From contig CAZNCS010000001.1 of NCBI GenBank assembly GCA_964571605.1, positions 4,098-68,097 of the forward strand: a DNA stretch of 64,000 nucleotides, in the 5' to 3' direction. Origin of the DNA: an uncultured Leptospira sp. (GTDB lineage: Bacteria > Spirochaetota > Leptospiria > Leptospirales > Leptospiraceae). The notes beneath the pieces are model-generated. The model was not told the origin of the DNA. It did not search any database and worked only from the letters and a program-made list of their open reading frames with translations. Below, piece after piece: positions 20,111 through 42,893 of the stretch. The translations under genes were made by a program, and so were the position numbers. Position 1 is the stretch's first letter; every line of letters begins with the position of its first letter.

Positions 20111-22720
20111 TTGAATGTACTGAGCTTGATTCGATTCTTTCTAGATTCAGTAATTGGTATTGGAAGCGAGAAGAATCAGGTGGAAAAAATCGGTAAGATA
20201 GGCGGGACTTTAGTTAACTTTTGGAATTTGTCCTCCTCAGAGTGTTTGGAAAAACTAGCAACGAGTCCTCTTGGATTGTCAGAAAAGGAAGCGAAGAGCC
20301 GCCTTCTTCGATTCGGTTCTAACCGCCTAACTACTAAAAAGGGGCAAACTGTTCTTGGCTTATTCTTCTCCCAATTCCGAAGTCCCATCGTATTACTTCT
20401 TTTTTTTGCGGCCGGTCTTTCTTTTGTAGTTCGTGATTCCACGGATGCATTGATTATTCTAGGTATCGTCTTTATCAGCGGTGTTCTTGGCTTTTGGCAG
20501 GAGCATGGAGCTATGAATGCGGTGGCCAAACTTTTGCAAATCGTTCAGGTAAAAGTTTCCATTTTTCGAAACGGAGTTTTGGAAGAGATCTCCTTGGAAG
20601 CTGTAGTTCCAGGGGACATTCTCAATTTAACTGCGGGGAATATTATTCCTGCTGATTGTCTGCTTTTAGAATCGAAAGATTTATTTGTAGATGAGGCCAC
20701 TCTGACCGGTGAAACTTTTCCGGCGGAAAAAACAATGGATCCGGTTTCTGGCGACGCCCCTTTGGGAAAAAGAACGAATTCTCTTTGGATGGGAACCCAT
20801 GTGATAAGTGGGAATGCCAAAGCAATCGTGGTGAAGACCGGAAAGGATACCGAGTTCGGCAAAATTTCCGAAAGATTAAAGTTAAGACCGATGGAAAACG
20901 AGTTCGAACTGGGAGTTCGCAAATTCGGTTTCTTTTTATTACATATTACATTGCTTCTAGTGATTACAATTTTCGTAATTAATCTCCTTTTGCATCGGCC
21001 CGTTTTGGATTCATTTCTCTTTTCTTTAGCATTGGCTGTCGGACTAACTCCACAATTACTTCCTGCGATTATAAGCATTAATCTATCTCACGGCGCTAGA
21101 AGAATGGCGGAAAAAAAGGTGATCGTAAAGCGTCTGACTGCGATTGAAAATTTCGGAAACATGAATATTATTTGCTCCGATAAAACCGGGACTTTGACAG
21201 AAGGGACCGTAAAGATGCAAGATGGAAGCGATATTTACGGAAGTATAAAGGAAGAAGTCGGATTGAACGCGTATATCAATGCTTTTTTCGAGACGGGTTT
21301 TATCAATGCTATCGACGAATCCATTCGGAGGGATTCCAAATTCGATATTTCAGAATATAAGAAAGCAGACGAAATACCGTATGATTTTCTCCGAAAGAGG
21401 CTGAGTATCCTTGTTTCTCATAAAATGGGGCATAGAATGATAACGAAAGGAGCTCTCACGAATGTTCTTGCTGTTTGCAATTTTGCAAAATCAGCGGATG
21501 GAAATCCGATTGCAATAAATACGGTCAAAGAAGTGATACAGAAACGTTATGAGGAATTAAGTGCCAAAGGATTGAGAGTCCTTGGAATTGCCATCAAAGA
21601 AATCGGGGCCTCGCCTAAGATTGATAAATCGGACGAAGAGAATATGACTTTCTTAGGGCTTTTGTCTTTTTTTGATCCTCCTAAACCAAACGTCGACAAA
21701 ACGGTCTCCGCGCTGAGAGCGTTGGGGGTTTCTTTAAAAGTGATTACCGGAGACAATCGTTTTGTAGCCGCTAGTTTATGTTCTCAAATAGGATTGTCTC
21801 AAATACGAACGCTCTGCGGTCCGGATTTAAATCTGATGAGCGACGAAGCATTGATGCATGCTGTCGGGAACGTAGATATTTTTGCCGAAATAGAGCCGAA
21901 TAGTAAGGAAAGGATTATAATCGCTTTAAAGAAAGCGGGTAATGTAGTCGGCTACATTGGAGACGGAATTAATGATGTATCAGCACTTCATTCCGCCGAT
22001 GTCGGGATTTCGGTGGAATCTGCGGTGGACGTAGCAAAAAATGCAGCCGATTTGGTTTTACTAGAAAAAAATCTGAATGTATTAGTCGATGGCGTGAAAG
22101 AAGGAAGAGTTACATTCGCTAATACTTTGAAGTACGTCTTTATGGCAACGAGCGCAAATTTCGGAAATATGTTCAGTATGGCTGGAGTTTCTTTGATTCT
22201 TCCGTTTTTACCCCTCCTTCCCAAACAAATTCTTCTCACAAATTTTTTGACTGATTTTCCGGAAATGACCATTGCGACTGACCGAGTGGATCCGGAAATG
22301 GTTTCCGCGCCTAGACATTGGGATATTGTCGCAATTCGGAAGTTTATGATCGTTTTTGGCTTGGTGAGTTCGTTTTTCGATTATTTAACCTTTGGTATAC
22401 TGCAGTGGGTATTGCACGTAAATCAGGAACAATTCAGAACGGGGTGGTTTATAGAGTCAGTTGTTTCGGCTTCTTTGATCGTACTTGTAATTCGAACGCG
22501 AAGATCTTTTTTTACAAGCAGGCCGGGACGTCCTTTGCTGATCGCCACCCTTACTATAATCTTTATTACCTTACTCTTTCCTTATACGCCGATTGCAGGA
22601 ATTTTTGGCTTGGTTCCCCTTCCTTTAGAGTTTCTGGGGCTTCTCTTGGGAATTATCCTGTTATACGTGGCCGTGGCGGAAGTTGCTAAAAGTATTTTCT
22701 ACAAAAAAGTAATGGTTTGA
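20111..22720 (+). CDS. mgtA: Mg2+-importing P-type ATPase, MgtA-like (start uncertain, GTG 20180 possible)
   Basis: TGE, GLTPQLLP, DKTGTLT, GDGINDV, TSANFGNMFS, FRTGWFIES. Confidence 0.8.
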   Translation: MNVLSLIRFFLDSVIGIGSEKNQVEKIGKIGGTLVNFWNLSSSECLEKLATSPLGLSEKEAKSRLLRFGSNRLTTKKGQTVLGLFFSQFRSPIVLLLFFAAGLSFVVRDSTDALIILGIVFISGVLGFWQEHGAMNAVAKLLQIVQVKVSIFRNGVLEEISLEAVVPGDILNLTAGNIIPADCLLLESKDLFVDEATLTGETFPAEKTMDPVSGDAPLGKRTNSLWMGTHVISGNAKAIVVKTGKDTEFGKISERLKLRPMENEFELGVRKFGFFLLHITLLLVITIFVINLLLHRPVLDSFLFSLALAVGLTPQLLPAIISINLSHGARRMAEKKVIVKRLTAIENFGNMNIICSDKTGTLTEGTVKMQDGSDIYGSIKEEVGLNAYINAFFETGFINAIDESIRRDSKFDISEYKKADEIPYDFLRKRLSILVSHKMGHRMITKGALTNVLAVCNFAKSADGNPIAINTVKEVIQKRYEELSAKGLRVLGIAIKEIGASPKIDKSDEENMTFLGLLSFFDPPKPNVDKTVSALRALGVSLKVITGDNRFVAASLCSQIGLSQIRTLCGPDLNLMSDEALMHAVGNVDIFAEIEPNSKERIIIALKKAGNVVGYIGDGINDVSALHSADVGISVESAVDVAKNAADLVLLEKNLNVLVDGVKEGRVTFANTLKYVFMATSANFGNMFSMAGVSLILPFLPLLPKQILLTNFLTDFPEMTIATDRVDPEMVSAPRHWDIVAIRKFMIVFGLVSSFFDYLTFGILQWVLHVNQEQFRTGWFIESVVSASLIVLVIRTRRSFFTSRPGRPLLIATLTIIFITLLFPYTPIAGIFGLVPLPLEFLGLLLGIILLYVAVAEVAKSIFYKKVMV

Positions 22721-22748
22721 AATCGACCTGACAGGCCTGTGATTATAT

Positions 22749-23303
22749 ATGAATCCTTATATTTTGCGTTCTATTATAAAAACACTTATAGAATATGCGG
22801 TCGTGATTTCAATCGGATTAGGAATCGTTTACTTAGATGAAAGTGAGTTCGCTGCTTTTGATATAAAGTATCTAATTGTGATTCTGGCGGCATTTAAAGC
22901 GGTATATTTTTTGGCGAAGGGTCTTGGAAAAATTTCCGAATTCTCCGGGCAGAATATTGAATATTATGAGTTCTTAGTGTTTATTGCCGTAAATATCAGT
23001 ATTATTATCCTCTCATTCGGAGTGGATTACCTTTGCCTCTACCGGGTGGACACAAAATCCTTTTCGGGTATACCGGAAGGAATGACTGGATTTGCTTTAG
23101 CGTTTAAATTCTTTTATTTTAGTCTGATGATTTTTGCAAATATCGGAATTATAAAAATCATTCCGGAAAGTACTGAATCGGAAATACTGGTGATTTTCGA
23201 AGCAATTCTGTCCTTTATTACAATCATCTTTGTCCTGTCGGATTTCTTGAGCCTGAAAGAATCTTTATCCAAACGTCTTGCTTCGAAAGATTCGGTTTCT
23301 TGA
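22749..23303 (+). CDS. Small membrane protein resembling a two-TM ion-channel pore domain
   Basis: About five hydrophobic segments; FFYFSLMIFANIGIIKIIP resembles the YFS..TT.GYGDI.P pore loop. Confidence 0.55.
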   Translation: MNPYILRSIIKTLIEYAVVISIGLGIVYLDESEFAAFDIKYLIVILAAFKAVYFLAKGLGKISEFSGQNIEYYEFLVFIAVNISIIILSFGVDYLCLYRVDTKSFSGIPEGMTGFALAFKFFYFSLMIFANIGIIKIIPESTESEILVIFEAILSFITIIFVLSDFLSLKESLSKRLASKDSVS

Positions 23304-23627
23304 TGCTCCCTCCTGCTTTTTTATTCGAGCCGTTTATACCTATCTTTGTTCGGATATGACTATACAACAACCTAATTCGTTAATATTTGCGCCGGTTTTT
23401 GAATTCGACGATGTTATACCGTTTATTTCCTGAACTGCTGGAGTTTTTTTGATAATCGATATGAGACTGGATCGGTTCTTCTTTCGGCGCGTTTTATTTT
23501 TTAAATTCGCATATTGAATTATAATATTTATATATAATGAAATATTGAAATAATTAATCGAAGGGTAAATTTGTCAGTTTTTCGGCGACCGGCTTGACAG
23601 ATCGTTTTTGCGGGCTATTGTCTGAGT

Positions 23628-25622
23628 ATGCTAATTATAATTTTAAGCCAAATTTCCGATTCCGGCCAAGTCCTCATATGGCCAGAATTTTCTTGGGTTT
23701 CACTCGTGCAGGGTGTAACTTTTCTAACCTTCCTTTTTGCAATCGTCTTTCTATTTCAAAAAGTCGTCCGCGTGCGAAATCAACGTATTCATGCCTATCG
23801 AGAAATGATTTTGGCCAAACTCAATCTGAGGGCCTTTTACAGTAAAGATGTGATTCTACTTCATGAGTTTTTGCACCATGTTACTTATTCTAGGCTCAGG
23901 AAGATGGCCGAGGTAACATCCTGGTATTCCGAGTATTTTATTCCTCAATTCCTGGAGTTTATAGGGAATCATACCAATCTTCCTGCTTGGAAGTGTATCT
24001 TGTTAGTTCAAACATTGGATCGTTCTACGAATGTTTCAGGAGATTCTTCCGAGAAATACTTAACCGGTATTTTGCAGATCAACACAAAGGAGAATGTTCC
24101 GATCGTACTAGAATGCCCTGGGATGGATGCAGATTCCGTCGACAGAAGGATTCCTGCAAAAATATACGCGAAGAGGGGAGCCGATTTGCTTTCCCATATG
24201 AAAAACCCAAAAGTGCAGTTATATTTCAGGAAAGAGAATCATATCTGGTTCAGATCTAATGCTGTATTGCGTTTTTATAAAGATACGAATCTAACTCTCC
24301 AGATTAAAAGTGCTCCAGAAGAGGACGCGATAAAGACAAAAGAATGGGTAGATTTAGTTCGGGAGAAAAAATTCATAGAACCTAAATCACAGCCGAGCCC
24401 TAAAAATTCGGATGTATTCTTAGAGGAATACATGGATAGTATTTCTCAAATCCTTGCTTATTCGGGGTTACAGCAGAATATTTGCGGACAGATAAGAAAT
24501 CTGGTAAAAACGTATAAGGAACATCCGGGTTATATTCGCAGAGAACATAAACAAGAAGATTATAAAATACTAATTCGACTGTACAAGGCGTGTTTTGTGA
24601 AATTTCGCTCCCAAACCGAAAATGTCCCTAAACCGGTCCTTCTGTTTATGTATTTCTTCTTCTTGGACGAAACTTTGGTATCCAATAAAAGAATCATTGA
24701 TTTGGAAGCCTCGATTGCGGTATTAAAATCAGCTTCTCCTATGCTTCCTAATTCAGGAGTAAAAATTTCGATCCATCTTCTTCCGGATTGGTTGAATTTG
24801 GTGCTTGGTGGAAAAAAGAATCCATCTAAGAATCAAATGGGGCAAAGTTACGATCAGGTACAAAAGTCTAAACTTCTCTGGAACCAAGGGGAAGAGGTGA
24901 AAAATTTAAGAGATAAAGAATATCTATTACGTCTTTTGGATTGGGAACTGGATAGTTTACTCTATACTGGATTGCTCGGGATTTCCTTAAATCCAAATCT
25001 CTCCTACCCGATTTTGTCAGAAGATCGATTTTATGGAAACACGGAAGCGAGCCTTTTATATCCCCGTAAAATTTCATCCAGCGTCGAACAAGTTTTAAAG
25101 ATGGATGCAGGCTTATTCAACCGGTTGGTATGTGTAACTTCTCCTTTAAATACAAATCAACAGGATTGGATACGTAAAGAGTTTTTTGCCGATTGTATTC
25201 TACTGCCGTATGCAGGAGATCGCGGAGTATTGTGGCAGGAAACCTCGGATGGAAATCTGGCCCGAAGTAGGCTTCTGTTTCCTACGGTTTTTAAGGAGAA
25301 TATCGGTCTTGCTGTTACAAAAACATTAGGCGAGTTTCGCTGGGAGACGGAAAGGACTTTTCGCGGAAGAAAGTGGAAAGACTCTTTGCCGGTGACTCTG
25401 ACTTCTCAATATAACGAGTATTTGGAAATGTTCCAGAAAGATCCCGACCTAACATCCGAGGCGAAAAAGAAGGTGGAACAACAATGGTCAAACGTTAGGC
25501 GGAACATTAAAGATATGTTTAGTGTAGACTATGCCAATTGGATTCTTTATGAAGTGGTAGGGAAACCTAGACTGAATCGAAACGCTCGCGAAATCCTTAC
25601 CCGCTTTGTTCCCACGAATTAG
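23628..25622 (+). CDS. Uncharacterised 664-aa protein with N-terminal membrane anchor
   Basis: Long ORF with normal composition, one TM near the N-terminus, followed by a terminator. Confidence 0.75.
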   Translation: MLIIILSQISDSGQVLIWPEFSWVSLVQGVTFLTFLFAIVFLFQKVVRVRNQRIHAYREMILAKLNLRAFYSKDVILLHEFLHHVTYSRLRKMAEVTSWYSEYFIPQFLEFIGNHTNLPAWKCILLVQTLDRSTNVSGDSSEKYLTGILQINTKENVPIVLECPGMDADSVDRRIPAKIYAKRGADLLSHMKNPKVQLYFRKENHIWFRSNAVLRFYKDTNLTLQIKSAPEEDAIKTKEWVDLVREKKFIEPKSQPSPKNSDVFLEEYMDSISQILAYSGLQQNICGQIRNLVKTYKEHPGYIRREHKQEDYKILIRLYKACFVKFRSQTENVPKPVLLFMYFFFLDETLVSNKRIIDLEASIAVLKSASPMLPNSGVKISIHLLPDWLNLVLGGKKNPSKNQMGQSYDQVQKSKLLWNQGEEVKNLRDKEYLLRLLDWELDSLLYTGLLGISLNPNLSYPILSEDRFYGNTEASLLYPRKISSSVEQVLKMDAGLFNRLVCVTSPLNTNQQDWIRKEFFADCILLPYAGDRGVLWQETSDGNLARSRLLFPTVFKENIGLAVTKTLGEFRWETERTFRGRKWKDSLPVTLTSQYNEYLEMFQKDPDLTSEAKKKVEQQWSNVRRNIKDMFSVDYANWILYEVVGKPRLNRNAREILTRFVPTN

Positions 25623-25678
25623 ACCGTGAAAAAATAAGCTGTTTGTTCGTTAGGAATAAAAAGTAACGATCTTAACCT

Positions 25679-25709
25679 AAAAAACGAGGGATAGAGTCTC
25701 TCGTTTTTT
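25679..25709. terminator. Bidirectional intrinsic terminator
   Basis: AAAAACGAGGGAT-AGA-GTCTCTCGTTTTT between convergent genes. Confidence 0.65.
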
Positions 25710-25729
25710 ATTATTAGGAATTAAGTCGA

Positions 25730-26374
25730 TTATAGATTGATCGTTTTGTTTTGATTCGTATGTTGAGAACGTTCTTCCTGCAATTCTTTCCAACCTAGAT
25801 AAACGTTTCCAAGTCCGGAAATAAAAAATCCAGTTCCTGTCCATATTAGAATTGTAAAAATCCCGATGAGTGGGAAGAAAAGAATGCCGACCCCAAAGAG
25901 TAAGGTTATTATTCCTATAAACATACTCCAGCCCCAGGGATACGATTTATAAACCCGGATATCGAAAGAGAAGGAAATAAAAGCTGTGGCGCGAAAGAGT
26001 AATAAAAATCCAAATACAAAAGGGAGTGTGGCCGCTGTGATTTCGGGATGTAGGAAGAGGAGTGTTCCCACAATCAAATCCAGAATTCCGAGGGTTAAAT
26101 TCCATCCTAAAATTCCGGGGTTTTTCCTATTATAAAAAGCAAAAGTAATTTGGGCGACTCCTGTCACAGCAAGCAGAATGGAAAAGGCTAGTGCAATTCC
26201 AAGATAACTTTGAGCCGGAAAAAGAAGTGTAAAGAATCCCGCTCCGACCCAAATTAGCCCGACAAGAATATGTAGCCACCAATGTTGAGTGTCTTTGAAA
26301 ATGCTAGAAGGCATAAAACCCGTCCTTTTCGTTTGTAATACTTTAATATATTCTGCATTAGGCCGACCTTCCAT
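25730..26374 (-). CDS. HdeD/DUF308 family membrane protein (start may be ATG 26314)
   Basis: WWLHILVGLIWVGAG, two DUF308-like halves, six TMs. Confidence 0.85.
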   Translation of the reverse strand: MEGRPNAEYIKVLQTKRTGFMPSSIFKDTQHWWLHILVGLIWVGAGFFTLLFPAQSYLGIALAFSILLAVTGVAQITFAFYNRKNPGILGWNLTLGILDLIVGTLLFLHPEITAATLPFVFGFLLLFRATAFISFSFDIRVYKSYPWGWSMFIGIITLLFGVGILFFPLIGIFTILIWTGTGFFISGLGNVYLGWKELQEERSQHTNQNKTINL

Positions 26375-26405
26375 TCTTTTTCAATTTTAATTGAATTTCA
26401 AAATA

Positions 26406-26419
26406 TTGATAAATGTCTG
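26406..26419. promoter_or_regulatory. FNR-like box upstream of the hdeD-like gene
   Basis: TTGAT-AAAT-GTCTG, 13/14 identical to the box at 44346. Confidence 0.4.
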
Positions 26420-26511
26420 AGTTCTCGTAATTTTCGATTGTTTTCATTTTGGATTTCCGGAATCCTTATTAGTGCGAGAAGAACTAAGAAGAATTGATAA
26501 CGGGTTAAAGG

Positions 26512-27972
26512 ATGGATTTTAATAAAGACGCCGCTTCCGAAATAGATAAAAAACTAAAGGAAGTCCAGCGTATCAATCAATCGCTTCAGGAAAGTGAAGC
26601 TCGGATGCGAAAAGTTTTGGAGAATATGCCGATTCTTTTTTTAGCAGTGGACGATGCGTTTCGTACGGTTTCTTGGAATCACGAATGTGAAAAAGTGATC
26701 GGATATTCTGAAGAGGAGGTTATCGATAAAGAGAACTTCTTAGTGAATCAATTTTTGCAACGTCAGAAAACGGGTGATTCTCCTTTGGACCCTAAAGTTC
26801 TGGAACCCGATTTTAAGAATTGGGAACTTGAATTGGCTTCGAAGGACGGTAAAACAAAAACAATTTCCTTGTCCAATATCTCTTCCGAATATCCTCTTCC
26901 CGGTTGGAATAAATGGTTCATAGGAGTGGACATCACTCGCACCAAGGAGATTGAAAGAGACTTAAAAAGTTCTCTTAAAGAACTTTCCGATTTTCAGACT
27001 GCGTTAAATGCAGTCTCGATCGTAGCAATCACGGATAAAGTCGGAACGATCATCTATGTGAATCAAAACTTCTGTGATATCAGCGGCTATTCTAGGGACG
27101 AACTTCTGGGACAAAACCATCGAATCATCAACTCCGGCTATCATCCGAAGGAATTTTTCAAAGATCTTTGGAAGACGATTTCTCGAGGGAAAATATGGAA
27201 AGGAGAGATCAAAAACCGAGCCAAAGACGGTAGATTCTATTGGGTGGATACTACCATTTCCCCCATTTTGGACGAATTTGGAAAACCGTATCAATTTTTG
27301 GCGATTCGAAACGATATTACCGAGAGAAAGGCGACCGAAGAAAAGGCTCGGCATGCGGAGAATAATTTAAAAACACTCCAGGACAGAATGAGTCCTCATT
27401 TCCTCTTCAATACATTAAGTATTATTCATTCTTATTTGCAAACGAATCCGGAACTTGCGGACTCTGCGATTCTTATGCTCGCGGATAATTATCGGTTTCT
27501 AACGGACCATGCGGGTCAACAACTCGTTTCTTTCGATATAGAATGGGAGTTTATGGAAAATTATTTAAATCTGTTAAAATTGAGATTTTCGGATTTTATA
27601 GAAGTGGAAATTACTAAGGAAGGGAATTTTCGAAAATGCCAACTTCCTCCTCTAACATTACAACCTTTAGTGGAAAACTCCTATATTCATGGCTTGCGCA
27701 ATAAAAAAGGCAAAGGGAAAATTTCCGTAAATGCGTTTATAGAAGGGGATAAAACCAGCATTATAATACGCGATAATGGAATCGGAATTAATCCGGAAAA
27801 TTTTCATTCTAGAACACTTTCGAATATATCGGAACGGTTGAAATTTTATCTTTACGAATCCGAAGTAAAAATTGAAAACCACCCTGAAGGCGGGGCGGTA
27901 GTCACAGTAACCTTTGACAAACCGAAAAACGAAAAGTTAGGCGATATAGTAATGTATGACCGATCAGAATAG
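26512..27972 (+). CDS. Cytoplasmic LytS-type (His_kinase) sensor with two PAS domains
   Basis: Second PAS LWKTISRGKIWKGEIKNRAKDGRFYWV; H-box MSPHFLFNTL; LQPLVENSYIHG; DNGIG. Confidence 0.9.
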   Translation: MDFNKDAASEIDKKLKEVQRINQSLQESEARMRKVLENMPILFLAVDDAFRTVSWNHECEKVIGYSEEEVIDKENFLVNQFLQRQKTGDSPLDPKVLEPDFKNWELELASKDGKTKTISLSNISSEYPLPGWNKWFIGVDITRTKEIERDLKSSLKELSDFQTALNAVSIVAITDKVGTIIYVNQNFCDISGYSRDELLGQNHRIINSGYHPKEFFKDLWKTISRGKIWKGEIKNRAKDGRFYWVDTTISPILDEFGKPYQFLAIRNDITERKATEEKARHAENNLKTLQDRMSPHFLFNTLSIIHSYLQTNPELADSAILMLADNYRFLTDHAGQQLVSFDIEWEFMENYLNLLKLRFSDFIEVEITKEGNFRKCQLPPLTLQPLVENSYIHGLRNKKGKGKISVNAFIEGDKTSIIIRDNGIGINPENFHSRTLSNISERLKFYLYESEVKIENHPEGGAVVTVTFDKPKNEKLGDIVMYDRSE

Positions 27973-28690
27973 AGAATGGAGAACGTTAATCGGAGAGGCC
28001 GCGGCTCCAACCAGAAAGCTTTTAGTAAGTTACTGTTTGACTCGACCGGAGCTGCGATTGACAAAAGTCGCTAAAGATGGAGAAGAAGCATTAGAATATC
28101 TGCAATCGGAAGAGATAGATCTTGCCTTCCTCGATATCAATCTTCCTTTACTTTCCGGTTTGGAAATTCTCGAAAAATTGGAAAATCCGCCGTACATTAT
28201 TTTTATCACAGCTTCGCGAGATAAGGCGATCGAAGCGTTCGAATTGGGAGCAATCGATTATTTATTAAAACCTTTTTCCAAAGATAGATTTTTTAAATCC
28301 GTCGATCGTTCCATACAATTTTTGGAAAAGAAGGAGGAAAAAACCTCAGGTAATATTTTCAATGAGCACGGGCTTTTTATTTTAGAAAAAGAAAATCATT
28401 TTTTAGTCCCTTATAAGGAGATTAATTATATTTCCTCGAGAGATAATTTCAGTGTAGTTCATACGGAAGAGAGAGAATATGTTACTTACAAGTCGCTGAA
28501 AAGTTTGGAAATGAAACTCCCTCCGTCTAAGTTTATTAGAATTTATAAACAGTATATTATAAACTTGGAAAAATTATCGCATCTCCAAACCGATAATATG
28601 GGGAACTATTCCGTTTATTTGAAAGACGAGGACGAAACTCAATTGCCGGTCGGTCGCAAATATATTTCTAAAATCAAAGAATTACTTTGA
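27956..28690 (+). CDS. LytTR family response regulator with atypical acidic pocket
   Basis: FLDINLP, FITAS, DYLLKPF; LytTR FIRIYKQYIINL and LPVGRKY; overlaps the kinase. Confidence 0.9.
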   Translation: MTDQNREWRTLIGEAAAPTRKLLVSYCLTRPELRLTKVAKDGEEALEYLQSEEIDLAFLDINLPLLSGLEILEKLENPPYIIFITASRDKAIEAFELGAIDYLLKPFSKDRFFKSVDRSIQFLEKKEEKTSGNIFNEHGLFILEKENHFLVPYKEINYISSRDNFSVVHTEEREYVTYKSLKSLEMKLPPSKFIRIYKQYIINLEKLSHLQTDNMGNYSVYLKDEDETQLPVGRKYISKIKELL

Positions 28691-28748
28691 TTTTTTCCCG
28701 CTAGATTCGCCGTTTATCCTTTGTTTCCGCCTAATACGTAGTCGGGAA

Positions 28749-28777
28749 TTGACTTTCCAATTTTCCGCTTTTATACT
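28749..28777 (+). promoter_or_regulatory. Sigma70-type promoter
   Basis: TTGACT, 17-nt spacer, TATACT, about 80 bp upstream of ATG 28859. Confidence 0.7.
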
Positions 28778-28858
28778 TTCCATCAAAAGATTTCGTTTAC
28801 GTTCCGCAATACAATCCAAAGCGGTCTGTTAGAAACGCGATCCGAATGGATTGATTGA

Positions 28859-30247
28859 ATGAGCGACAATACTAAAAAATTAGCAACGATACAGTTTCTT
28901 GGAGGAGCCGGAAGTGTGACCGGTTCCAAATATCTAATTCAAGCCTTTGGAAAAAAGATCCTAGTAGATTGCGGCCTCTTCCAAGGTGAGAAACAATTGA
29001 GGTTATTGAATTGGGATGCTCCTCCATTCGAATCATCTTCGATCGATGCTGTTTTACTGACCCACGGGCATTTGGACCATTGCGGTTATCTCCCTCGGAT
29101 TGTGAAGGAAGGGTTTAAGGGACTTATTTTTGGCACGGATCCTACATTAGATATAGCAAATATAGTTTTAAAGGACAGCGCCAAATTACAGGAGGAGGAC
29201 GCGTATTATGCGAATAAAGGCGGCTATTCCAAACATAAACCGGCGTTCCCTCTTTATGATTCCAAAGACGTAGAGAATACCGTTCCTTTATTCCGATCCG
29301 CAGAACTCAATACTTGGATTTCTCTTAATTCTGATATTAAATTTCGATTTCGATACAACGGTCATATCTTGGGCGCCAGTTTTATTGAGATACAAATCGG
29401 TAAGAAAAAATTGGTCTTCTCGGGAGATATCGGAAGGGATACGGATCGGCTTTTATACGCACCTCAGAAACCGGAGGAGGCCGATATTCTTTTGATCGAA
29501 TCCACATATGGGAATCGAATCCATAGGGGAAATCCGGAAAAACGCCTGATTCAGCTTGTGAATCAATACGCAGAGTCGGAAGGATCGATTATCATTCCCA
29601 GTTTTGCGGTCGAGAGGTCTCAACTTCTGATGTTCCTTCTTTGGAAATTTCGCAAAGAAAAAAGAATCGCAGATATTCCGATCTATATGGATTCCCCGAT
29701 GGGCTTAAATGTTTTCGACGTATTTCAAAAATATGGCGCGGAATGGCATAAACTAACCACCGCCGATTGTAAACAAATCAGCAAAGAAATTATCTGCGTC
29801 ACCGATTCTGGAAAAACAAAAAAAATCGCAAGCGAGAAAGGTCCGAGAATCGTGATTGCAGGAAGCGGAATGGCAACAGGAGGCAGGGTCCTTTCTTATT
29901 TAGAACATTCCCTTGGAGATCCGGAATCTCTTGTGCTTCTCGTAGGTTACCAAGCTTTCGGAACTCGGGGGCGAAATCTTTTGGAAGGAAATACTGAAAT
30001 AAAAATTCGAGGTAAATTCTATGAGGTTCGATGCGAAGTGCAAAGTATAGACGGACTTTCCGCACACGCCGACCAAAAGGAACTTTTAGCATGGATGTCC
30101 GAATTGAATCGAGCTCCAGAGAAAGTTTGTATCGTTCACGGAGAAAAGGATGCCTCTTCCATGTTGGCGTCTAAAATCCAAAAAACCTATAATTGGAATA
30201 CTCTCATTCCAGTCAGAAACGAAGTTTTAGAATTCGAAACCCTTTGA
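28859..30247 (+). CDS. MBL-fold metallo-hydrolase, beta-CASP/RNA-specificity type
   Basis: GGAGSVTGS, VDCGLFQG, THGHLDH, ESTYG, SGMATGGR, SAHADQ, VHGE. Confidence 0.92.
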   Translation: MSDNTKKLATIQFLGGAGSVTGSKYLIQAFGKKILVDCGLFQGEKQLRLLNWDAPPFESSSIDAVLLTHGHLDHCGYLPRIVKEGFKGLIFGTDPTLDIANIVLKDSAKLQEEDAYYANKGGYSKHKPAFPLYDSKDVENTVPLFRSAELNTWISLNSDIKFRFRYNGHILGASFIEIQIGKKKLVFSGDIGRDTDRLLYAPQKPEEADILLIESTYGNRIHRGNPEKRLIQLVNQYAESEGSIIIPSFAVERSQLLMFLLWKFRKEKRIADIPIYMDSPMGLNVFDVFQKYGAEWHKLTTADCKQISKEIICVTDSGKTKKIASEKGPRIVIAGSGMATGGRVLSYLEHSLGDPESLVLLVGYQAFGTRGRNLLEGNTEIKIRGKFYEVRCEVQSIDGLSAHADQKELLAWMSELNRAPEKVCIVHGEKDASSMLASKIQKTYNWNTLIPVRNEVLEFETL

Positions 30248-30368
30248 TTTTTCACCCTGTAAATCCGCCGAAAATCGTTCCAATCCGCGGCATACCTCGG
30301 CGGCCATTGACGGACTTCGTTTTCCTTCGTATGATTTAAACATCCAAATAATAGGGGATAAAAGAACA

Positions 30369-31049
30369 ATGATGATGACTGCAATGAAACCACAAGTTAG
30401 CGAATCTACTTTTTTTGATCGCAAACCGATATTCAAAGAGCTTGCTATTTCAGAGTCCAATGCTCGATTTACGCGGAAACAAGTTCCTAAGAATACGATT
30501 CTTTTTTCGGAAGGAGATCCGGCCACAGGGTTTTACATCGTCGAAAAAGGTTCCCTTCGTTCCTATCGTTCTTCCGGAATAGGCAAACAGCAAACCTTTC
30601 AAATTTATACCCCAGGGGCTTGGCTCGGGTTAAGAGATACGGTTTCCGGAGAAACGTATTTGCACCACGCGATTGCACTTGAGGACTCCGTTGTTCTTTT
30701 TGTGGAAGAAGCGGAGCTCAATCGACTCTTAATTTGTGATTCGGAATTCCAAAAGACCATTTTTCGTCAAGTTGTCAAAGATTCGATCGAGGCGGAGAAC
30801 AAAATATATTCTCTTGGAACCAGGCAAGTTCACGCGAAACTCGCAGAGTTTCTATTGCAGTCCAGAAAGTTCCAAACGGGAGATGTGGATCTTCCTTTTA
30901 CACGCGAGGTGATGGCATCGATCATTGGAGTGACTACGGAAACTTTAGTGCGAGCCTTAACCGACTTGAAAAACAGGGGATGGATCGATATCGATAAACG
31001 TAAAGCATTCATAAAGGATGAGTTGGCACTTCGTAAGTTATTGGATTGA
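30369..31049 (+). CDS. Crp/Fnr family regulator without the 4Fe-4S cysteines
   Basis: LFSEGD, IVEKGSLR, HTH FTREVMASIIGVTTETLVRAL; only one Cys. Confidence 0.9.
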   Translation: MMMTAMKPQVSESTFFDRKPIFKELAISESNARFTRKQVPKNTILFSEGDPATGFYIVEKGSLRSYRSSGIGKQQTFQIYTPGAWLGLRDTVSGETYLHHAIALEDSVVLFVEEAELNRLLICDSEFQKTIFRQVVKDSIEAENKIYSLGTRQVHAKLAEFLLQSRKFQTGDVDLPFTREVMASIIGVTTETLVRALTDLKNRGWIDIDKRKAFIKDELALRKLLD

Positions 31050-31083
31050 ACATCGGGCTCGAAGCTAATTTGGCATAAATAGA

Positions 31084-31755
31084 ATGGTCGAAAATTATGA
31101 GGGCAAACAATTTACTTTTCAGATAAACAGAATCGAGCTTAGTGGCGATTTATTTGTATCTGAGAACTCGAAATCTCTAGTAATTTTGGTTTTAGGAGAA
31201 AAAGAGGATAAGTTTTTAGATCGATTTAAAGGTTTAAAACTGGACCTGAATAAAAAAAACATAGCCACTCTTTTTTTGAAAGGATTACTAACTTCGGAAG
31301 AGAGGGAAGTTTCCGCAAATCGTTTGGACGAATCGCTTTTGGGCGACAGACTTGTTTCCGTAACACGTTTTCTTAGGACCTATTCAGAGACTAAAGACCA
31401 TAGAATTTCTTATTTGAGCTTATCCACCATAGCAGGAAGAATATTTCGTGCCGCATCTATCCTAATCGGCGAAGCGGAAAGTTTGATTCTAATTGGAAAC
31501 GGACTCCAACCTTTAAATTTCGTTTTTTGTAAAACTCCTATTTTGAATGTAGTTGGAGGTTTGGATTTCCGCGGTATCGAATCGAATAAGCTAGTCCTTT
31601 CCAAAATAGATGCACCCTTAAAAATAATCCATTCCATCCAAGGATCCCCGAGCAATTTTGAAGAAAAAGAAAAATGGTCTCTTGTTTCTTCTGCGATTCA
31701 GAAATGGTTTTCTTCTCCGACAACAAGAATGACCGACTTTACCTCGGAAGGCTGA
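31084..31755 (+). CDS. Degenerate dienelactone-hydrolase-like alpha/beta protein
   Basis: LSGDLFV, GLLTSEE, LGDRLVSVT, PILNVVGGLD; catalytic motifs are altered. Confidence 0.55.
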   Translation: MVENYEGKQFTFQINRIELSGDLFVSENSKSLVILVLGEKEDKFLDRFKGLKLDLNKKNIATLFLKGLLTSEEREVSANRLDESLLGDRLVSVTRFLRTYSETKDHRISYLSLSTIAGRIFRAASILIGEAESLILIGNGLQPLNFVFCKTPILNVVGGLDFRGIESNKLVLSKIDAPLKIIHSIQGSPSNFEEKEKWSLVSSAIQKWFSSPTTRMTDFTSEG

Positions 31756-31766
31756 TTTGTATAAAA

Positions 31767-31790
31767 AAGCTCTCTTTGGAAAGAGAGCTT
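31767..31790. terminator. Bidirectional intrinsic terminator
   Basis: AAGCTCTCTTT-GG-AAAGAGAGCTT between convergent genes. Confidence 0.7.
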
Positions 31791-31822
31791 AGAGTTAGCT
31801 TTTTATGAATCCTCTCGGATAT

Positions 31823-32035
31823 TTATTTTTTTGCGGGACAGGTATTCCACCCGAATAATGAGTATAAAGGACAAAAGCCGAGTAGTCCCGTTAATAAAGG
31901 AACTAGTCCAAATACCATCAGACCGGTACCAACCAAGCCCTGCGTCATGACGCCCATAATAATCAATACCAATCCGGCTAAAATTCGGGCGGCTCTATCT
32001 AGATTTCCTAAGTTTAATTTCATGGAAACCTCCAT
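31823..32035 (-). CDS. DUF2892 (YgaP-like) small membrane protein
   Basis: NLGNLDRAARILAG and LLTGLLGFCPLYSLFGWNTC. Confidence 0.9.
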   Translation of the reverse strand: MEVSMKLNLGNLDRAARILAGLVLIIMGVMTQGLVGTGLMVFGLVPLLTGLLGFCPLYSLFGWNTCPAKK

Positions 32036-32109
32036 AATATCTTTAGTTATTATTATCCATCGTATCGAAAATAGTAAGTCGTTTATGGTTTTGGATATTG
32101 AAAAACGTA

Positions 32110-32123
32110 CTGATAATTATCAG
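32110..32123. promoter_or_regulatory. FNR-like palindrome upstream of DUF2892
   Basis: CTGAT-AATT-ATCAG, perfect 14-bp palindrome. Confidence 0.55.
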
Positions 32124-32136
32124 GCAAAAACGGGGT

Positions 32137-34689
32137 TTAGAATTCGTTTTTAGAGAAGGAAAGGGTGGCGTGAAGTATATTCATTTTTCTGAATTCCCAG
32201 ATAAAACTGACGGTTAGGCCCAGTCCCAGTGAAATGAAAGTTTCTTGGAATCCGATCGGTTCCAGTCCGAACAATCGTAGAAGTAAACTATTATGGAAAA
32301 TTATAGTGATGATAAGAATCGTAAGCGCTAAAATCCAATAAATCGTATAATTATCCTTTGGTAATACTTTAAAAAAAGGTTTAGAGTAGGATAAATTGGA
32401 AAAAATCAGACCGAAATTGGAAGCGATTAGGAAAAGGAAACCAAGCGAACGTATTTTTTCATGGGTCCAAAGGGATTCTTTTCCAAAGAAATAAAGAGCC
32501 AATAATACGAATAGAACCGAGCCTCCTTGTAAAAGGCTGAGTAAAAAATTCTTTAGGCCGAGAAGATTTTCCGTTCTGGACCTGGGAGGGACACTGCCTA
32601 CCGCATTTTCAGCGGGTAATCCTTCGAATACTAAAGAGCAGGATGGATCTATAATTAATTCAAATAATAATACATGAGCAGGAAGAAGGAAAAGGGGATC
32701 TCCTGTAAACACAGGTAGAAGTGACATTCCGATAATAGGAATATGGACTGAAATTATATAAGATACGCTTTTCTTTATATTTTCGTAAATTTGCCTTCCT
32801 AATAGTATCGATTTCACTATGGAGGAAAAATTATCGTCTAAGAGCACCAAGTCGGAAGCCTCTCGGGCCACATCCGTTCCGCGTTTCCCCATAGAAATTC
32901 CGATATGCGCAGCTTGCAAAGCGAGAGCGTCATTGACGCCGTCTCCGGTCATCGCAACAGTCTCACCTTTACTTTGTAATCGTTTCACGATTTTTAATTT
33001 TTGGTGGGGACGAATTCTGGAAAATATATTTGCTTTTTCTAATTTATAATCCAACTCGGAATCGGAAAGATTCTGTAGTTCTGCTCCGGTGAGAATCGAA
33101 TCCGGGTGTTGCAATCCGATCTTTTTGGCGATTGCAGTAGCAGTTCCAGAATGGTCTCCGGTAATCATAACAACTTTGATTCCAGCTCGATTACAATCGG
33201 AAATGGCGGAAGGGACTGATTCTCGAATCGGATCTTCTAAAACGACCAGACCTAAAAATTCAAAATCTAAATCGTGCTGATCGCTTGGAAGGTTTTGGTT
33301 TTTTACAAATGATTTTGCAACTCCCAAAATTCTAAATCCTTCTAAGGCATATTCTTCAGTAATTTCGGTCCATTTTTCCATCTTTTCCGGAGAAAAATGA
33401 CAAAGATCGAAAATCGCTTCGGGAGCCCCTTTGGCTCCTACGAATATCTGGCCTGAATTTTCTTTAGAAAGCCAAGCATAACTTAAAGCCAAAAGTTTTT
33501 GAGTAAGCGGATATTCTTTTTCCAATTGCCAATTCGGATGGATATGTTCCGTCTTAGAAAGATATTGCAACCCGAGTTCTTGGATGGCTTTTTCCATCGG
33601 ATCATGAGGATCTTTTTGGGACGCGAGCACGGCGAATTCCAATAACGTATGAAATTTTTCAGGCATCTCTTTTAAATCCGAAGAGCAGTCCAAATATTCG
33701 TTCTCGTAAAATAACCCTTGTACCTTCATCTTGTTTTCGGTTAATGTGCCGGTTTTGTCGACGCATAAGACAGTAGCTGCTCCCAGAGTTTCGATTGCAC
33801 TTAACTCTCTGGTTAATACTCCGATTTTTGATATTCTCCAAGCTCCTAGAGAGAAGAATATACTCAATACGACAGGAAGTTCCTCCGGTATGACCGCCAT
33901 GGAAAAAGTAAGTCCTGCAAGCAAGGCCTGTAGCCAATTTCCAGAACGAAACCCCAAACCTAAAATCAGGAATATACATAGTAGTCCGGCGAAAAGTGAG
34001 AAGAGTAATGTAAAACGTTTGATTTCTAGTTGTAAGGGACTTTCCGAACTGGAAATACTTCCCAATTCTTTTCCGATCTTTCCGATTTCGGTGAAATTGC
34101 CTGTATTATTAACTTTGAAAATGCCTTCTCCGGATACGACCGTACTACCAGCGTAAAGACGATTTGAATTTTCGTTATGTATTTCTCCCAATTTTGAATA
34201 TTGTTTAGCTACACTAACGGATTCTCCTGTCAATAAGGACTCGTCTATATGTAGATTGAGAGAGGAAAGTAAAAATCCGTCGGCGGGAACCCTGTCTCCT
34301 TCTTTCACGAGTGCGATATCGTTTGGAACTACCTCTTTAGCGGAAATTTGCACCATCTTACCGTCACGAATTACTTTTGCGAGTAGAGGAGAGAGTTTTC
34401 TCAAAGAAGCCAACGCATTTTCGGATTTTCTTTTCTGGTAAATCGTAATGGATATTACAGCAATGACCGCGAAAGAAAGCATTGCTGCTTCTTCCAAATC
34501 GCCTAATAAAACATAAAGGAGACCGCAGGCAAGTAGTAGGAGCAACATCGGTTCTCCGAGTACGGCAATGGTCACCTTAAATAGGGAAGTTTTTCTGTTC
34601 TCAAGTTCGTTCGGACCGAATTTTGCAAATAACTTTAAAGCTTCTTCCGAGCTAAGTCCGGTCTGTAATTTATTTAGAGAGGTGTTCAT
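32137..34689 (-). CDS. Cation-translocating P-type ATPase (P2A/Ca2+-like)
   Basis: TGES, IPEELP, DKTGTLT, KGAPE, TGDH, GDGVND, FELIIDP. Confidence 0.9.
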   Translation of the reverse strand: MNTSLNKLQTGLSSEEALKLFAKFGPNELENRKTSLFKVTIAVLGEPMLLLLLACGLLYVLLGDLEEAAMLSFAVIAVISITIYQKRKSENALASLRKLSPLLAKVIRDGKMVQISAKEVVPNDIALVKEGDRVPADGFLLSSLNLHIDESLLTGESVSVAKQYSKLGEIHNENSNRLYAGSTVVSGEGIFKVNNTGNFTEIGKIGKELGSISSSESPLQLEIKRFTLLFSLFAGLLCIFLILGLGFRSGNWLQALLAGLTFSMAVIPEELPVVLSIFFSLGAWRISKIGVLTRELSAIETLGAATVLCVDKTGTLTENKMKVQGLFYENEYLDCSSDLKEMPEKFHTLLEFAVLASQKDPHDPMEKAIQELGLQYLSKTEHIHPNWQLEKEYPLTQKLLALSYAWLSKENSGQIFVGAKGAPEAIFDLCHFSPEKMEKWTEITEEYALEGFRILGVAKSFVKNQNLPSDQHDLDFEFLGLVVLEDPIRESVPSAISDCNRAGIKVVMITGDHSGTATAIAKKIGLQHPDSILTGAELQNLSDSELDYKLEKANIFSRIRPHQKLKIVKRLQSKGETVAMTGDGVNDALALQAAHIGISMGKRGTDVAREASDLVLLDDNFSSIVKSILLGRQIYENIKKSVSYIISVHIPIIGMSLLPVFTGDPLFLLPAHVLLFELIIDPSCSLVFEGLPAENAVGSVPPRSRTENLLGLKNFLLSLLQGGSVLFVLLALYFFGKESLWTHEKIRSLGFLFLIASNFGLIFSNLSYSKPFFKVLPKDNYTIYWILALTILIITIIFHNSLLLRLFGLEPIGFQETFISLGLGLTVSFIWEFRKMNILHATLSFSKNEF

Positions 34690-35491: not shown

Positions 35492-35650
35492 CTATTTGTC
35501 TTCCTTCGGATTTTCTTCTTCGAAAAGCATTCTATATTTCGGACCCTCGATATCGTCGTATTGGCCCGTTCGATAACTCTGTATAAAAACGTAAAACGCT
35601 CCGAAAGCGATCATAAGTGCTATCGGAATCATAAGATATAATGCGTTCAT
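35492..35650 (-). CDS. ccoS: cbb3 oxidase maturation protein CcoS (absent from the ORF track)
   Basis: Hand translation MNALYLMIPIALMIAFGAFYVFIQSYRTGQYDDIEGPKYRMLFEEENPKEDK*, with the GQYDD motif; ATGA overlap with ccoI. Confidence 0.92.
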   Translation of the reverse strand: MNALYLMIPIALMIAFGAFYVFIQSYRTGQYDDIEGPKYRMLFEEENPKEDK

Positions 35651-38091: not shown

Positions 38092-38579
38092 GGTTCGATC
38101 CGTATCTGTTTCGTTTTTTCCAACAAACCTTCCTTAGTTTTTGCTGAAATACTGATCCGCCAAGATCCCGAAAATGGAATTTCCAATTCGCCCGAATAAT
38201 TTCCTTTATCGATTTCTTTTAATAGAAGTGTTCGGTTGAAAGTGTCACTTGCACTTCTTTCTAGTTTAAGTTGAATTTGCGCGCCGGAGATCGATTCTTT
38301 TCCTTTCTGAAATCTTACGGATATATTCTGTTTACCCGGTTTGAGTGAGGTCGGCTGACTGAGCCAAGGTGTATGGAGTTCGTATCCCATCTTCACCATT
38401 TCACGTTGGGAAGCTACGGTTTGGTCGTATTTCAAACCTTTTTCGTAATAGTTTGAATCTACCGGAGGAGTATGACCTGCCACTGCGATTCGAACCGTAA
38501 CGAATGTCGCTGTAAATAGTAGCGCGAAGGTAATCCCGATTAGAACGAATGCTTGTTTAAGGCTTCTGTGCATGGGCAA
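38088..38579 (-). CDS. ccoH: FixH/CcoH family protein
   Basis: Single TM, VDSNYYEKGLKYDQ; lies between ccoG and ccoI. Confidence 0.8.
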   Translation of the reverse strand: MPMHRSLKQAFVLIGITFALLFTATFVTVRIAVAGHTPPVDSNYYEKGLKYDQTVASQREMVKMGYELHTPWLSQPTSLKPGKQNISVRFQKGKESISGAQIQLKLERSASDTFNRTLLLKEIDKGNYSGELEIPFSGSWRISISAKTKEGLLEKTKQIRIEP

Positions 38580-39936
38580 TCCTCGTATTATTTGTATTTT
38601 GTTTTTGAACCAAACTTAAGGGTAAAAGAAAAGGAATGTCGATTGATTTGTTGAAATTCGGATCTAGGATATCCGCTATTTTCAAACGAATCTCGTGACT
38701 TTTTTGAGTTATGTCTTCGGGAGTTGCATTTAACTCGATGAACAAACGATATCTTTTTTCGGAATTGCCGGGGAGTTCAACCGTTGCGTTGACGGTTCCT
38801 CCTACAAGTATTTTACGAATTCCTTTTAGATCGGTTTGCTCTATTTCAAAATGGAGAGTACGATCGATAACTGTCAGATTTTGCATTTGCACTTCGTAAA
38901 AATTTCTAACAATTCCTTCTTCCAAAACCTGAGGTTGGATATTTCTATCCGCGATAATCGATAGATACAAAGGTACTCGTTTCCATAAGAGAAGGCTTAG
39001 AACAGAAAGAACCAGAATAAGAGCGCTCGAATAAAGAATTGTTCTTGGGCGGATCCATTGGATTTTCGAATCTTTTTGTTCGATCTGATTTTCGGACCAA
39101 TATCCGATCAGAGTTTTTTTATTTTCTTTCGCCATTTGTTGAGTGCAGGCATCCGAACATTTTCCGCAGGCGATACATCCTACGTTAGTTCCCTCTCGGA
39201 TATCGATTCCTGTAGGACAAACGACCAAACACATATTGCAAGCGGTGCAATCTCCTATTTTTACCTTTTCCTTTCTTCTAGGTTCTCCTCTTTGGAAATC
39301 ATAAGTGATGTTTACTGAGTGAGCGTCCATCATCACAGTCTGAAAACGTGCATAAGGACATGCGTATTTGCAGAACTGCTCTCGGATAAAGGCGATATCC
39401 GCATACATGGCAAAGGTAAAGAAAGCGAGATATCCCGACCAACCGGGTATATTTCCGTTTGTTTTCAAATCCATTATGGAATCTATCATACGATGCGGAT
39501 CCGCAAAATATGAGACCCATGCAGATGAAGCAAGTAGGCTGACTAAGATCCAAGACAGATGAGTGGAAATTTTGGGAAATAAGGGCGCGTCTTTTTTACC
39601 GTATTTAGAACCTTGGAGGAATCTTCCGATTCCGTCGAAGATATCCGTATAGATCGTTTGCGGACAGCCCCAACCGCACCAGACTCTTCCGATTAACGTA
39701 GTGAAGAAGAATAAGGCCAAGCCCATTCCCATCAGAAATAAATGTAGAAAGTAACCTTCTTGGGGAGTGAAAATATTTCCTAAAAGAAAGAATTTTCTAT
39801 CCGGTATATCCAAGCGTATGAGAGGCATTCCGTTCCAACGGAACCAAGGAGTGACAAAAAAAACGAAAACGAGAATGGACTGCACGTAGTACCGTGCAGT
39901 TCTAATTTTACCGGAGATAGGTCGTGAAACGATCAT
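38557..39936 (-). CDS. ccoG: cbb3 accessory 4Fe-4S protein CcoG
   Basis: GRVWCGWGCPQT, FCKYACPYARFQ, CTACNMCLVVCP, CIACGKCSDAC. Confidence 0.95.
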   Translation of the reverse strand: MIVSRPISGKIRTARYYVQSILVFVFFVTPWFRWNGMPLIRLDIPDRKFFLLGNIFTPQEGYFLHLFLMGMGLALFFFTTLIGRVWCGWGCPQTIYTDIFDGIGRFLQGSKYGKKDAPLFPKISTHLSWILVSLLASSAWVSYFADPHRMIDSIMDLKTNGNIPGWSGYLAFFTFAMYADIAFIREQFCKYACPYARFQTVMMDAHSVNITYDFQRGEPRRKEKVKIGDCTACNMCLVVCPTGIDIREGTNVGCIACGKCSDACTQQMAKENKKTLIGYWSENQIEQKDSKIQWIRPRTILYSSALILVLSVLSLLLWKRVPLYLSIIADRNIQPQVLEEGIVRNFYEVQMQNLTVIDRTLHFEIEQTDLKGIRKILVGGTVNATVELPGNSEKRYRLFIELNATPEDITQKSHEIRLKIADILDPNFNKSIDIPFLLPLSLVQKQNTNNTRIAHAQKP

Positions 39937-39973
39937 TTTACATTCCTTCTTTTCACAACTTTTCTCCCTGCTA

Positions 39974-40507: not shown

Positions 40508-40511
40508 AAAA

Positions 40512-40658: not shown

Positions 40659-40668
40659 AGTTCGTTCC

Positions 40669-42794: not shown

Positions 42795-42893
42795 TCTTGA
42801 TTTCTCCGGTTTTTCCGTGAGGAATATTTTCCATTCTCTTTATTGGAATGTTGGAGAGCAAGAAATCCGACTTAGAATCGTTCGGATTCGACT

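Follow-up and report, generated by a model that had tools for sequence, protein, structure and literature searches.

The window analysed here, a stretch of 64,000 nucleotides from an uncultured Leptospira sp. (assembly GCA_964571605.1, contig CAZNCS010000001.1, positions 4,098 to 68,097 of the forward strand), carries on its plus strand a sensor histidine kinase gene and an overlapping LytTR-type response regulator gene, followed by a FixK-like gene whose promoter bears two direct repeats in an arrangement conserved across the genus. We favour, as on balance probable, a conventional phosphorylation-dependent two-component system in which a flavin-type redox sensor kinase is paired with a LytTR regulator. 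The window DNA was traced to two groundwater-metagenome runs (X1 and X2) that hold it at a word depth of ~4x, which makes the window a Leptospira-like metagenome assembly of low coverage. For comparison, the Logan contigs of X1 and X2 were placed on window positions 22000-34000, where they leave 28042-28118 uncovered. Literature on Leptospira with LytTR or cbb3, on 6SWJ and on FimS/AlgZ ATP-binding motifs yielded no study of the present system. The features of the kinase, the regulator and the repeat promoters are as follows.

26512-27972, plus strand: sensor histidine kinase gene, an open reading frame (ORF) of 486 amino acids with Pfam and NCBIfam matches
26602-26946, plus strand: PAS1, approximately residues 31-145 of the kinase, a weak PAS domain without a recognisable cofactor signature
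27001-27330, plus strand: PAS2, residues 164-273, of the MmoS/NifL/Aer type and predicted to bind flavin adenine dinucleotide (FAD)
27397-27399, plus strand: codon of His296, the predicted phospho-accepting histidine within SPHFLFNTLS, invariant in the Leptospira alignment
27808-27831, plus strand: glycine-free HSRTLSNI where the G2 box would lie, at the start of CA-domain helix 434-446 of the AlphaFold2 (AF2) model
27956-28690, plus strand: LytTR-type response regulator gene, 244 amino acids, with REC at residues 11-116 and LytTR at residues 148-244
27985-28002, plus strand: cluster of suspect bases, where the window has G, G, C and C at 27985, 27993, 27999 and 28002 and the run contigs have T, T, A and A
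28692-28777, plus strand: weaker copy of the repeat promoter before the beta-CASP gene, in the same register and directly after the regulator stop codon
30248-30335, plus strand: conserved promoter of the FixK-like gene and predicted LytTR binding site, from a gap-free alignment of 12 species

The kinase comprises an N-terminal helix, PAS1, PAS2, the DHp domain (His_kinase, PF06580) and the CA domain (HATPase_c) as assigned by Pfam, an order that agrees with the AF2 model, from which we take the domain order only, since the model is of moderate quality (mean pLDDT 70, pTM 0.36). The closest proteins are from Leptospira species (62-81% identity), and related genomes annotate the orthologues as 'PAS domain S-box protein'. 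The multi-pass N-terminal membrane sensor that is a feature of LytS and BtsS is absent, with the two PAS domains found there instead. Indeed, no transmembrane segment was detected in the kinase, the highest 19-residue Kyte-Doolittle mean being 1.44 and falling within a PAS strand. PAS1 barely exceeds the Pfam cut-off (23 bits, with residues 1-159 searched alone), and comparison with solved structures in the PDB gave marginal matches only, to phytochrome and FixL PAS domains (the FixL similarity being negligible, 0.77), with no cofactor assigned.

PAS2, which is also matched by PAS_9 at residues 171-271 (4.4e-22) and adopts the PAS order of strands and helices at residues 170-268 of the AF2 model, is most similar to the FAD-binding PAS-A domain of MmoS (3EWK), with 62% identity over 109 residues and a domain E-value of 1.8e-40. 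The next structures are the FAD-PAS domains of Aer (8DIK, 3e-19) and NifL (2GJ3, 4e-19), followed by LOV domains. The flavin pockets of MmoS and Aer share four residues, namely T103/H132/N164/R195 in MmoS and T18/H53/N85/R115 in Aer (PMC9668731). In the 3EWK alignment, T174, H203, N235 and R266 of PAS2 align with the four MmoS residues, and all four are invariant in the 21 Leptospira orthologues of the kinase alignment. FAD binding by PAS2 is a strong prediction because of the identity with MmoS PAS-A together with the retention of all four pocket residues, and the domain appears better termed 'MmoS-like' than 'Aer/NifL-like'. The predicted FAD is quite likely to sense redox state or O2. The first-pass annotation of this locus had described the two genes, the FAD-PAS pattern (DLWKTISRGKIWKGEIKNRAKDGRFYWV) within 27001-27330, the lack of transmembrane segments and HSRTLSNI in place of the G2 glycines, and each of these readings is borne out, the FAD-PAS structure matches lying far beyond chance. 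Its proposal of a cytoplasmic redox or O2 sensor, of the flavin type, joined to a LytS-type kinase and paired with a LytTR regulator likewise gains support.

Many of the Leptospira kinase orthologues are longer (595-655 amino acids) and carry an extra, poorly conserved N-terminal domain of ~160 amino acids, for which precomputed Pfam assignments report GAF_2 (PF13185) in two of the longer proteins (set P0002-P0008, P0018, P0021, P0022 and P0024); this domain is missing from the window kinase and from several other orthologues (444-490 amino acids). Between the kinase gene and the divergent DUF308/HdeD-like gene that precedes it, an intergenic region of 137 bp contains a palindrome, GGATTTCCGGAATCC (26451-26465, plus strand), which may represent an autoregulation site.

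Within the kinase core, the His_kinase domain (residues 285-361) reaches 66.1 bits (cut-off 25.2), and the HATPase_c domain (residues 383-470) is matched weakly (28.8 bits, cut-off 26.4). The positions that correspond to ATP and Mg2+ ligands are E388, N389, H393 and G394 of the N-box and D421, G423 and G425 of the G1 box, and both boxes, LVENSYIHG and DNGIG, are invariant across the Leptospira orthologues. The G2 box of the window kinase departs from the GxGxG(L) pattern: HSRTLSNI stands in its place, reads the same in the contigs of X1 and X2, and shares its lack of G2 glycines with 20 Leptospira orthologues, S433, R434, N438, I439, R442 and L443 being invariant in the genus. In an exhaustive HMMER search, residues 280-486 matched 93,875 cluster representatives at E <= 0.001, of which we inspected the nearest 150. 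A histidine occupies the position of His296 in 148 of these, and the H-box His, the N-box Glu/Asn/His/Gly and the G1 Asp/Gly/Gly are each present in at least 137. At the G2 position, scorable in 146 representatives, a consensus of [FY]SR[ST]LGNI..RL emerges, with one glycine among the five G2 positions in 94 sequences and none, as in the window, in 26; the classic GIGLGN occurs in a few matches only, for example P0259 and P0326.

The regulator gene overlaps the kinase gene by 17 nt, as it also does in L001. Its product is closest to proteins from Leptospira species (70-87% identity), which in related genomes are annotated as 'LytR/AlgR family response regulator', and Pfam detects both Response_reg and, at residues 148-244, LytTR (PF04397, 85.9 bits). 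The phospho-accepting D60 (28133-28135), T85 and K105 are intact. As assembled, the window encodes G13-E14-A15-A16 (GGA GAG GCC GCG), with the E-A-A codons GAG-GCC-GCG at 27995-28003, whereas all 15 Leptospira orthologues read IVEDEAP. In the alignment of 32 homologues including the window, E-D-E is kept in 29 of the 31 other sequences and E-A-A is unique to the window assembly. Moreover, V13G, D15A and E16A are the sole window-specific changes at genus-invariant positions, such that window-specific change is confined to the active site.

Comparison with the two runs places these changes within a short cluster of suspect bases. The contigs of X1 and X2 supply 48 pieces over 22000-34000, all of which are identical to the window with the exception of a single X1 piece (27547-28041) that differs from it at six positions. 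Four of these are a synonymous G>T at 27985, seen in both X1 and X2, and G>T at 27993, C>A at 27999 and C>A at 28002, seen in X1. The last three convert GGA, GCC and GCG into GTA, GAC and GAG, giving V, D and E, the genus consensus. All four are G/T or A/C swaps within 18 bp at ~4x depth, and the window's version of 27965-28035 was found in no indexed run when searched by three sampled words (31-mers). With the X1 bases, the Response_reg match extends from profile position 2 to 110 (76.2 bits), compared with 15 to 110 (67.1 bits) for the protein as assembled. In both runs the contigs are interrupted at 28042-28118, a sign of very thin local coverage; the window assembly of this stretch is probably based on single reads. 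The window may contain further errors of this low-depth kind, a suspect being K21 of the regulator, which is E or D in the orthologues.

E-A-A is very probably an assembly artefact, because the orthologues read IVEDEAP, the changes sit only in the active site and the run contigs give V-E-D-E. A burst of swaps in an otherwise identical 12 kb resembles what a poor-quality read end leaves behind when it is built into an assembly of low depth, and errors in the run contig would have had a negligible chance of recreating the conserved motif at all three sites. The regulator is thus almost certainly canonical, with the acidic pocket E14-D15-E16. A regulator that truly lacks the Mg2+-binding acidic residues and acts independently of phosphorylation, within an atypical and undescribed circuit, would agree with the letters of the window and with a Pfam REC alignment that begins at profile position 15 for the assembled protein; we consider it scarcely credible, given that the variant is unique among the homologues, that it holds every window-specific change at a Leptospira-invariant position, that an X1 contig from the same strain disagrees with it and both runs contradict the neighbouring base at 27985, and that the four swaps fall so close together at such depth. 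That the assembler picked up a genuine, if rare, allele from a co-existing strain with a decaying receiver pocket is also very improbable: the X2 contig does end at 27990, just short of the variant sites, as it might at a branch in the assembly graph, but the window shows no other difference to either run in 12 kb, the variant is on no contig and its 31-mers are in no indexed run, and the contig breaks in both runs point to thin coverage and not to strain variation. The first-pass annotation was correct in reading E-A-A from the window letters and in noting that the phospho-Asp is kept, but the motif is not biology, and what had been built upon it falls away: the 'atypical LytTR regulator' has E-D-E in the run contig and in all Leptospira orthologues, and E-A-A, the conservation of which the annotation had itself proposed as a check on a 'possibly phosphorylation-independent' system, is unique to one assembly and unsupported even by the contigs of the runs that hold the strain. 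Phosphorylation independence fails on that test, and the atypical reading behind the claim of an undescribed circuit is largely refuted.

The missing G2 glycines of the kinase lead to a similar question, namely whether a CA domain of this kind cannot bind ATP, leaving a pseudokinase or a phosphatase-only partner. SRTLS without a glycine and an HATPase_c score barely over its cut-off would fit such a protein, but His296 and the N-box and G1 ligands do not vary within the genus and hardly vary within the subfamily, which would be odd for a dead enzyme, and SR[ST]L is itself conserved; we therefore regard this alternative as improbable. The loss of G2 is not evidence of a dead kinase, because it is subfamily-wide and the other catalytic residues are near-invariant. 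Judged from the alignments, the missing glycines are a subfamily hallmark under purifying selection with no sign of a dead or decaying kinase, and the pattern suggests that the conserved SR[ST]L functionally replaces them. Autophosphorylation of the LytS-type core on His296 is likely.

The promoter of the FixK-like gene provides the best available clue to the target of the regulator. In the window, a box, TTTTTCACCCT (30248-30258), is followed by two direct repeats, AATCCGCCG (30262-30270) and AATCCGCGG (30282-30290), that lie 20 bp apart, and then by a -35 element TTGACG (30307-30312), a 17-nt spacer and a -10 element TATGAT (30330-30335). Thirteen promoters from 12 species align without gaps over ~90 columns upstream of the FixK-like gene, with a consensus of ATTTTCACCCT, 2 nt, AAATCCGCAG, 10 nt, CAATCCGCCG, 16 nt, TTGAC, 17-18 nt and TATnAT, and a direct-repeat unit of (A/C)AATCCGC(A/C)G. 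A weaker copy precedes the beta-CASP gene and consists of GATTCGCCG (28704-28712), GTTTCCGCC (28723-28731), TTGACT (28749-28754), a 17-nt spacer and TATACT (28772-28777). A relaxed regular expression for the full arrangement has two matches in 64 kb, those at 30248 and 28692, and one match per related locus. These two motif sites coincide with the two best plus-strand intergenic sigma-70 matches, TTGACG/TATGAT at 30307/30330 being among the four top matches of the sigma-70 scan (10 of 12). Promoters activated by LytTR proteins usually carry two direct repeats, spaced by roughly two helical turns, that abut the -35 box, whereas proteins of the CRP family bind palindromes, and the layout observed here fits LytTR binding. 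That the phosphorylated regulator binds the tandem repeats, thereby inducing both the FixK-like/hydrolase operon and the RNase gene, is marginally favoured on this pattern.

The genes downstream of the regulator comprise three further plus-strand genes and a cbb3 oxidase cluster on the minus strand.

28859-30247, plus strand: beta-CASP metallo-beta-lactamase RNase gene, between the regulator gene and the FixK-like gene
30369-31049, plus strand: CRP/FNR-family FixK-like regulator, 226 amino acids, with a cNMP-binding domain and HTH_Crp_2
31084-31755, plus strand: dienelactone-hydrolase-family protein, 223 amino acids, matching PDB 2O2G at 9.7e-12 and no Pfam family
35647-42794, minus strand: cbb3 oxidase cluster (this and the following six genes assigned by Pfam)
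41355-42794, minus strand: ccoN
40669-41358, minus strand: ccoO
39974-40507, minus strand: ccoP
38557-39936, minus strand: ccoG
38088-38579, minus strand: fixH
35647-38091, minus strand: ccoI

The best NCBIfam matches of the FixK-like protein are FtrB and FixK, both below cut-off, and the protein lacks an FNR-type Fe-S cluster because it contains a single cysteine. The hydrolase gene adjoins the FixK-like gene in all 11 related genomes that have one, and adjoins the regulator gene in L. noguchii; as a constant neighbour, it is probably co-regulated with the FixK-like gene. In the hydrolase itself, SLSTI takes the place of the nucleophile motif GASTG. The best NCBIfam matches of the beta-CASP protein, Cas14 type VII and aCPSF1, both fall far under cut-off. 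The position of this gene varies: it lies between the regulator and FixK-like genes in three genomes (the window, L003 and L012), upstream of the kinase gene in L. perolatii (L011, 8525-9910), and elsewhere is absent from the module.

Gene neighbourhoods were compared across 12 other Leptospira loci, using a contig scan with strict peptide patterns, such that further species may have the module. Eleven of the 12 other species share the order kinase, regulator, (beta-CASP), FixK-like gene, hydrolase; the remaining locus (L008) has all module genes but the FixK-like gene and no cco nearby. The cco genes lie within 10 kb in five of the 12 (haakeii, sarikeiensis, 'Mane', perolatii and SA-E8), and thus in six of 13 genomes when the window is included. 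The same neighbourhood was sought around three distant regulator homologues (P0139, P0143 and P0145), none of which has a CRP-family or cco neighbour, and the module therefore appears confined to Leptospira; one of the three has a convergent PAS-His_kinase gene.

Several further features of the window may be recorded. Upstream of ccoN, at 42864-42888 on the minus strand and just downstream of a TTGACA hexamer, lies a perfect inverted repeat, AATCCGA-N11-TCGGATT, the arms of which are similar to the AATCCGC repeat before the FixK-like gene and which may be a regulator site or a hairpin of the 5' untranslated region. Beside the cco cluster, the minus strand also carries a P-type ATPase gene and a gene of the DsbD_2 family. 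Four P-type ATPase genes are present in 64 kb (8518-10845, 20111-22720, 32137-34689 and 35647-38091), namely ccoI, one heavy-metal ATPase gene with HMBD repeats, and two genes whose products have both the N- and the C-terminal Cation_ATPase domain. Upstream of the kinase region, a plus-strand ORF of 664 amino acids (23628-25622) has no Pfam or NCBIfam match, and a gene for a SpoIIE-7TMR-DISM protein lies at 13318-15801.

From these features we propose the following sequence of events. PAS2 of the soluble kinase, likely binding FAD, would report the cellular redox state or O2 in groundwater Leptospira, and the signal would pass through the helical linker to the LytS-type DHp/CA core, which belongs to a large subfamily with SR[ST]L[GS]N in place of the GxGxG of G2, leading to autophosphorylation on His296. 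The phosphoryl group would then be transferred to Asp60 of the co-translated LytTR regulator, within its normal E14-D15-E16 pocket. The phosphorylated regulator probably binds the two direct repeats, 20 bp apart and just upstream of the -35 element, and such binding would switch on the promoter that serves the FixK-like and hydrolase genes, along with its second copy ahead of the beta-CASP RNase gene. In turn, the neighbouring cbb3 oxidase cluster may be under the control of the FixK-like protein, although this last step, for which synteny provides the argument, is tentative and its prospects are somewhat below even.

The principal alternative for the output is that the kinase is indeed a redox sensor, but that its regulon consists of the adjacent FixK-like, hydrolase and RNase genes only, or is non-respiratory, the proximity of cco being coincidental. 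Such a limited regulon would account for the six of 12 other species that keep the kinase, regulator, FixK-like and hydrolase genes without cco within 10 kb, for L008, where cco is lacking too, for the lack of a FixK box at cco, and for the distant regulator homologues that do not stand beside CRP-family or cco genes. It sits less easily with the adjacency of cco in genomes from divergent Leptospira lineages, and with the FixLJ-FixK logic, in which a FixK-type regulator without a sensor cluster of its own normally needs an upstream sensor; we judge it possible but rather unlikely. The reading of a conventional system that reaches the FixK-like gene and perhaps cco nevertheless has several points weighing against it. 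The repeats are spaced by 20 bp, whereas LytTR sites that have been studied typically show 21-22 bp. The read-level check was made on assembled (Logan) contigs, which leave 28042-28118 (regulator codons 30-55) uncovered, and it identifies four of the six bases at which the X1 piece departs from the window. The module occurs without cco within 10 kb in pathogen-group (P1) species and in fluminis. The FixK/FNR box TTGAT-N4-ATCAA, with one mismatch allowed, has three matches in 64 kb, which is below chance expectation, and none is near cco or the FixK-like gene. Finally, a comparison of six genomes from 2010 found LytTR and Crp family regulators in L. biflexa only and not in L. borgpetersenii (PMC2964297), while cbb3 genes are present in L. 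borgpetersenii (PMC8055020), so that the system cannot be a universal cco regulator of the genus.

The pair shares features with several known systems. MmoS of Methylococcus capsulatus, through its PAS-A domain with the same Thr, His, Asn and Arg in the pocket, NifL (PAS1) and Aer (PAS) are cytoplasmic FAD-based redox sensors, as PAS2 is predicted to be, but the outputs differ: the kinase or kinase-like cores of MmoS and NifL are of other kinds, and Aer acts as a chemoreceptor, whereas PAS2 is joined to a LytS-type His_kinase/HATPase core. The LytS/BtsS(YehU) kinases with LytTR regulators (LytSR, BtsSR, FimS-AlgR and AgrCA-like outputs) have the same PF06580 DHp domain, PHFLFN motif, N-box and G1 box, as well as a short ATP lid and an adjacent cognate REC-LytTR gene; the present system differs from them in having two PAS domains instead of a membrane sensor, SRTLSN instead of GxGxGL, and 20-bp repeats. 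Both departures from the textbook LytS kinase, the lack of a membrane sensor and the lack of G2 glycines, are common to a very large subfamily. AgrA- and ComE-type promoters also carry tandem direct repeats beside the -35 box, the same layout as that seen before the FixK-like gene.

As in FixLJ-FixK of rhizobia, a PAS kinase and regulator pair stands beside a FixK-like gene without a Cys cluster and beside ccoNOP/ccoGHI. In contrast to FixLJ, however, the PAS domain is of the flavin type and not the haem type, the kinase is PF06580 and not HisKA, and the regulator has LytTR and not the FixJ/LuxR helix-turn-helix, in addition to which no FixK box is found at cco. The resemblance to FixLJ is best described as analogy, not homology. 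The suggestion of the first-pass annotation that the pair fills the FixLJ role remains a reasonable hypothesis in view of the synteny and the LytTR-style promoter, but is weakened by the missing FixK box and by the several species without a nearby cco. The full combination, in which FixLJ-FixK logic has been rebuilt in Leptospira from unrelated parts (FAD-PAS LytS-type kinase to LytTR regulator to tandem-repeat FixK-like promoter to cbb3), with a kinase from a large unstudied 'SR[ST]L[GS]N' subfamily that binds ATP without G2 glycines, is speculative and, taken as a whole, rather unlikely.

Every part of the system belongs to a known family and the pair is fairly ordinary for Leptospira, its two exceptional-looking features being an assembly error (E-A-A) and a family trait (G2), respectively. 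The former calls for caution, as a striking active-site loss in a ~4x metagenome assembly vanished on checking against the underlying runs. What is new here is the genus-conserved two-repeat promoter before the FixK-like gene. The G2-less LytS-type subfamily is large, and its mode of ATP binding is worth knowing. If the proposed circuit is correct, it would provide an example of a non-orthologous replacement of FixLJ, and the kinase-regulator pair would be the first candidate for O2- or redox-dependent control of the high-affinity oxidase in environmental and intermediate Leptospira, one for which a specific DNA target is proposed.

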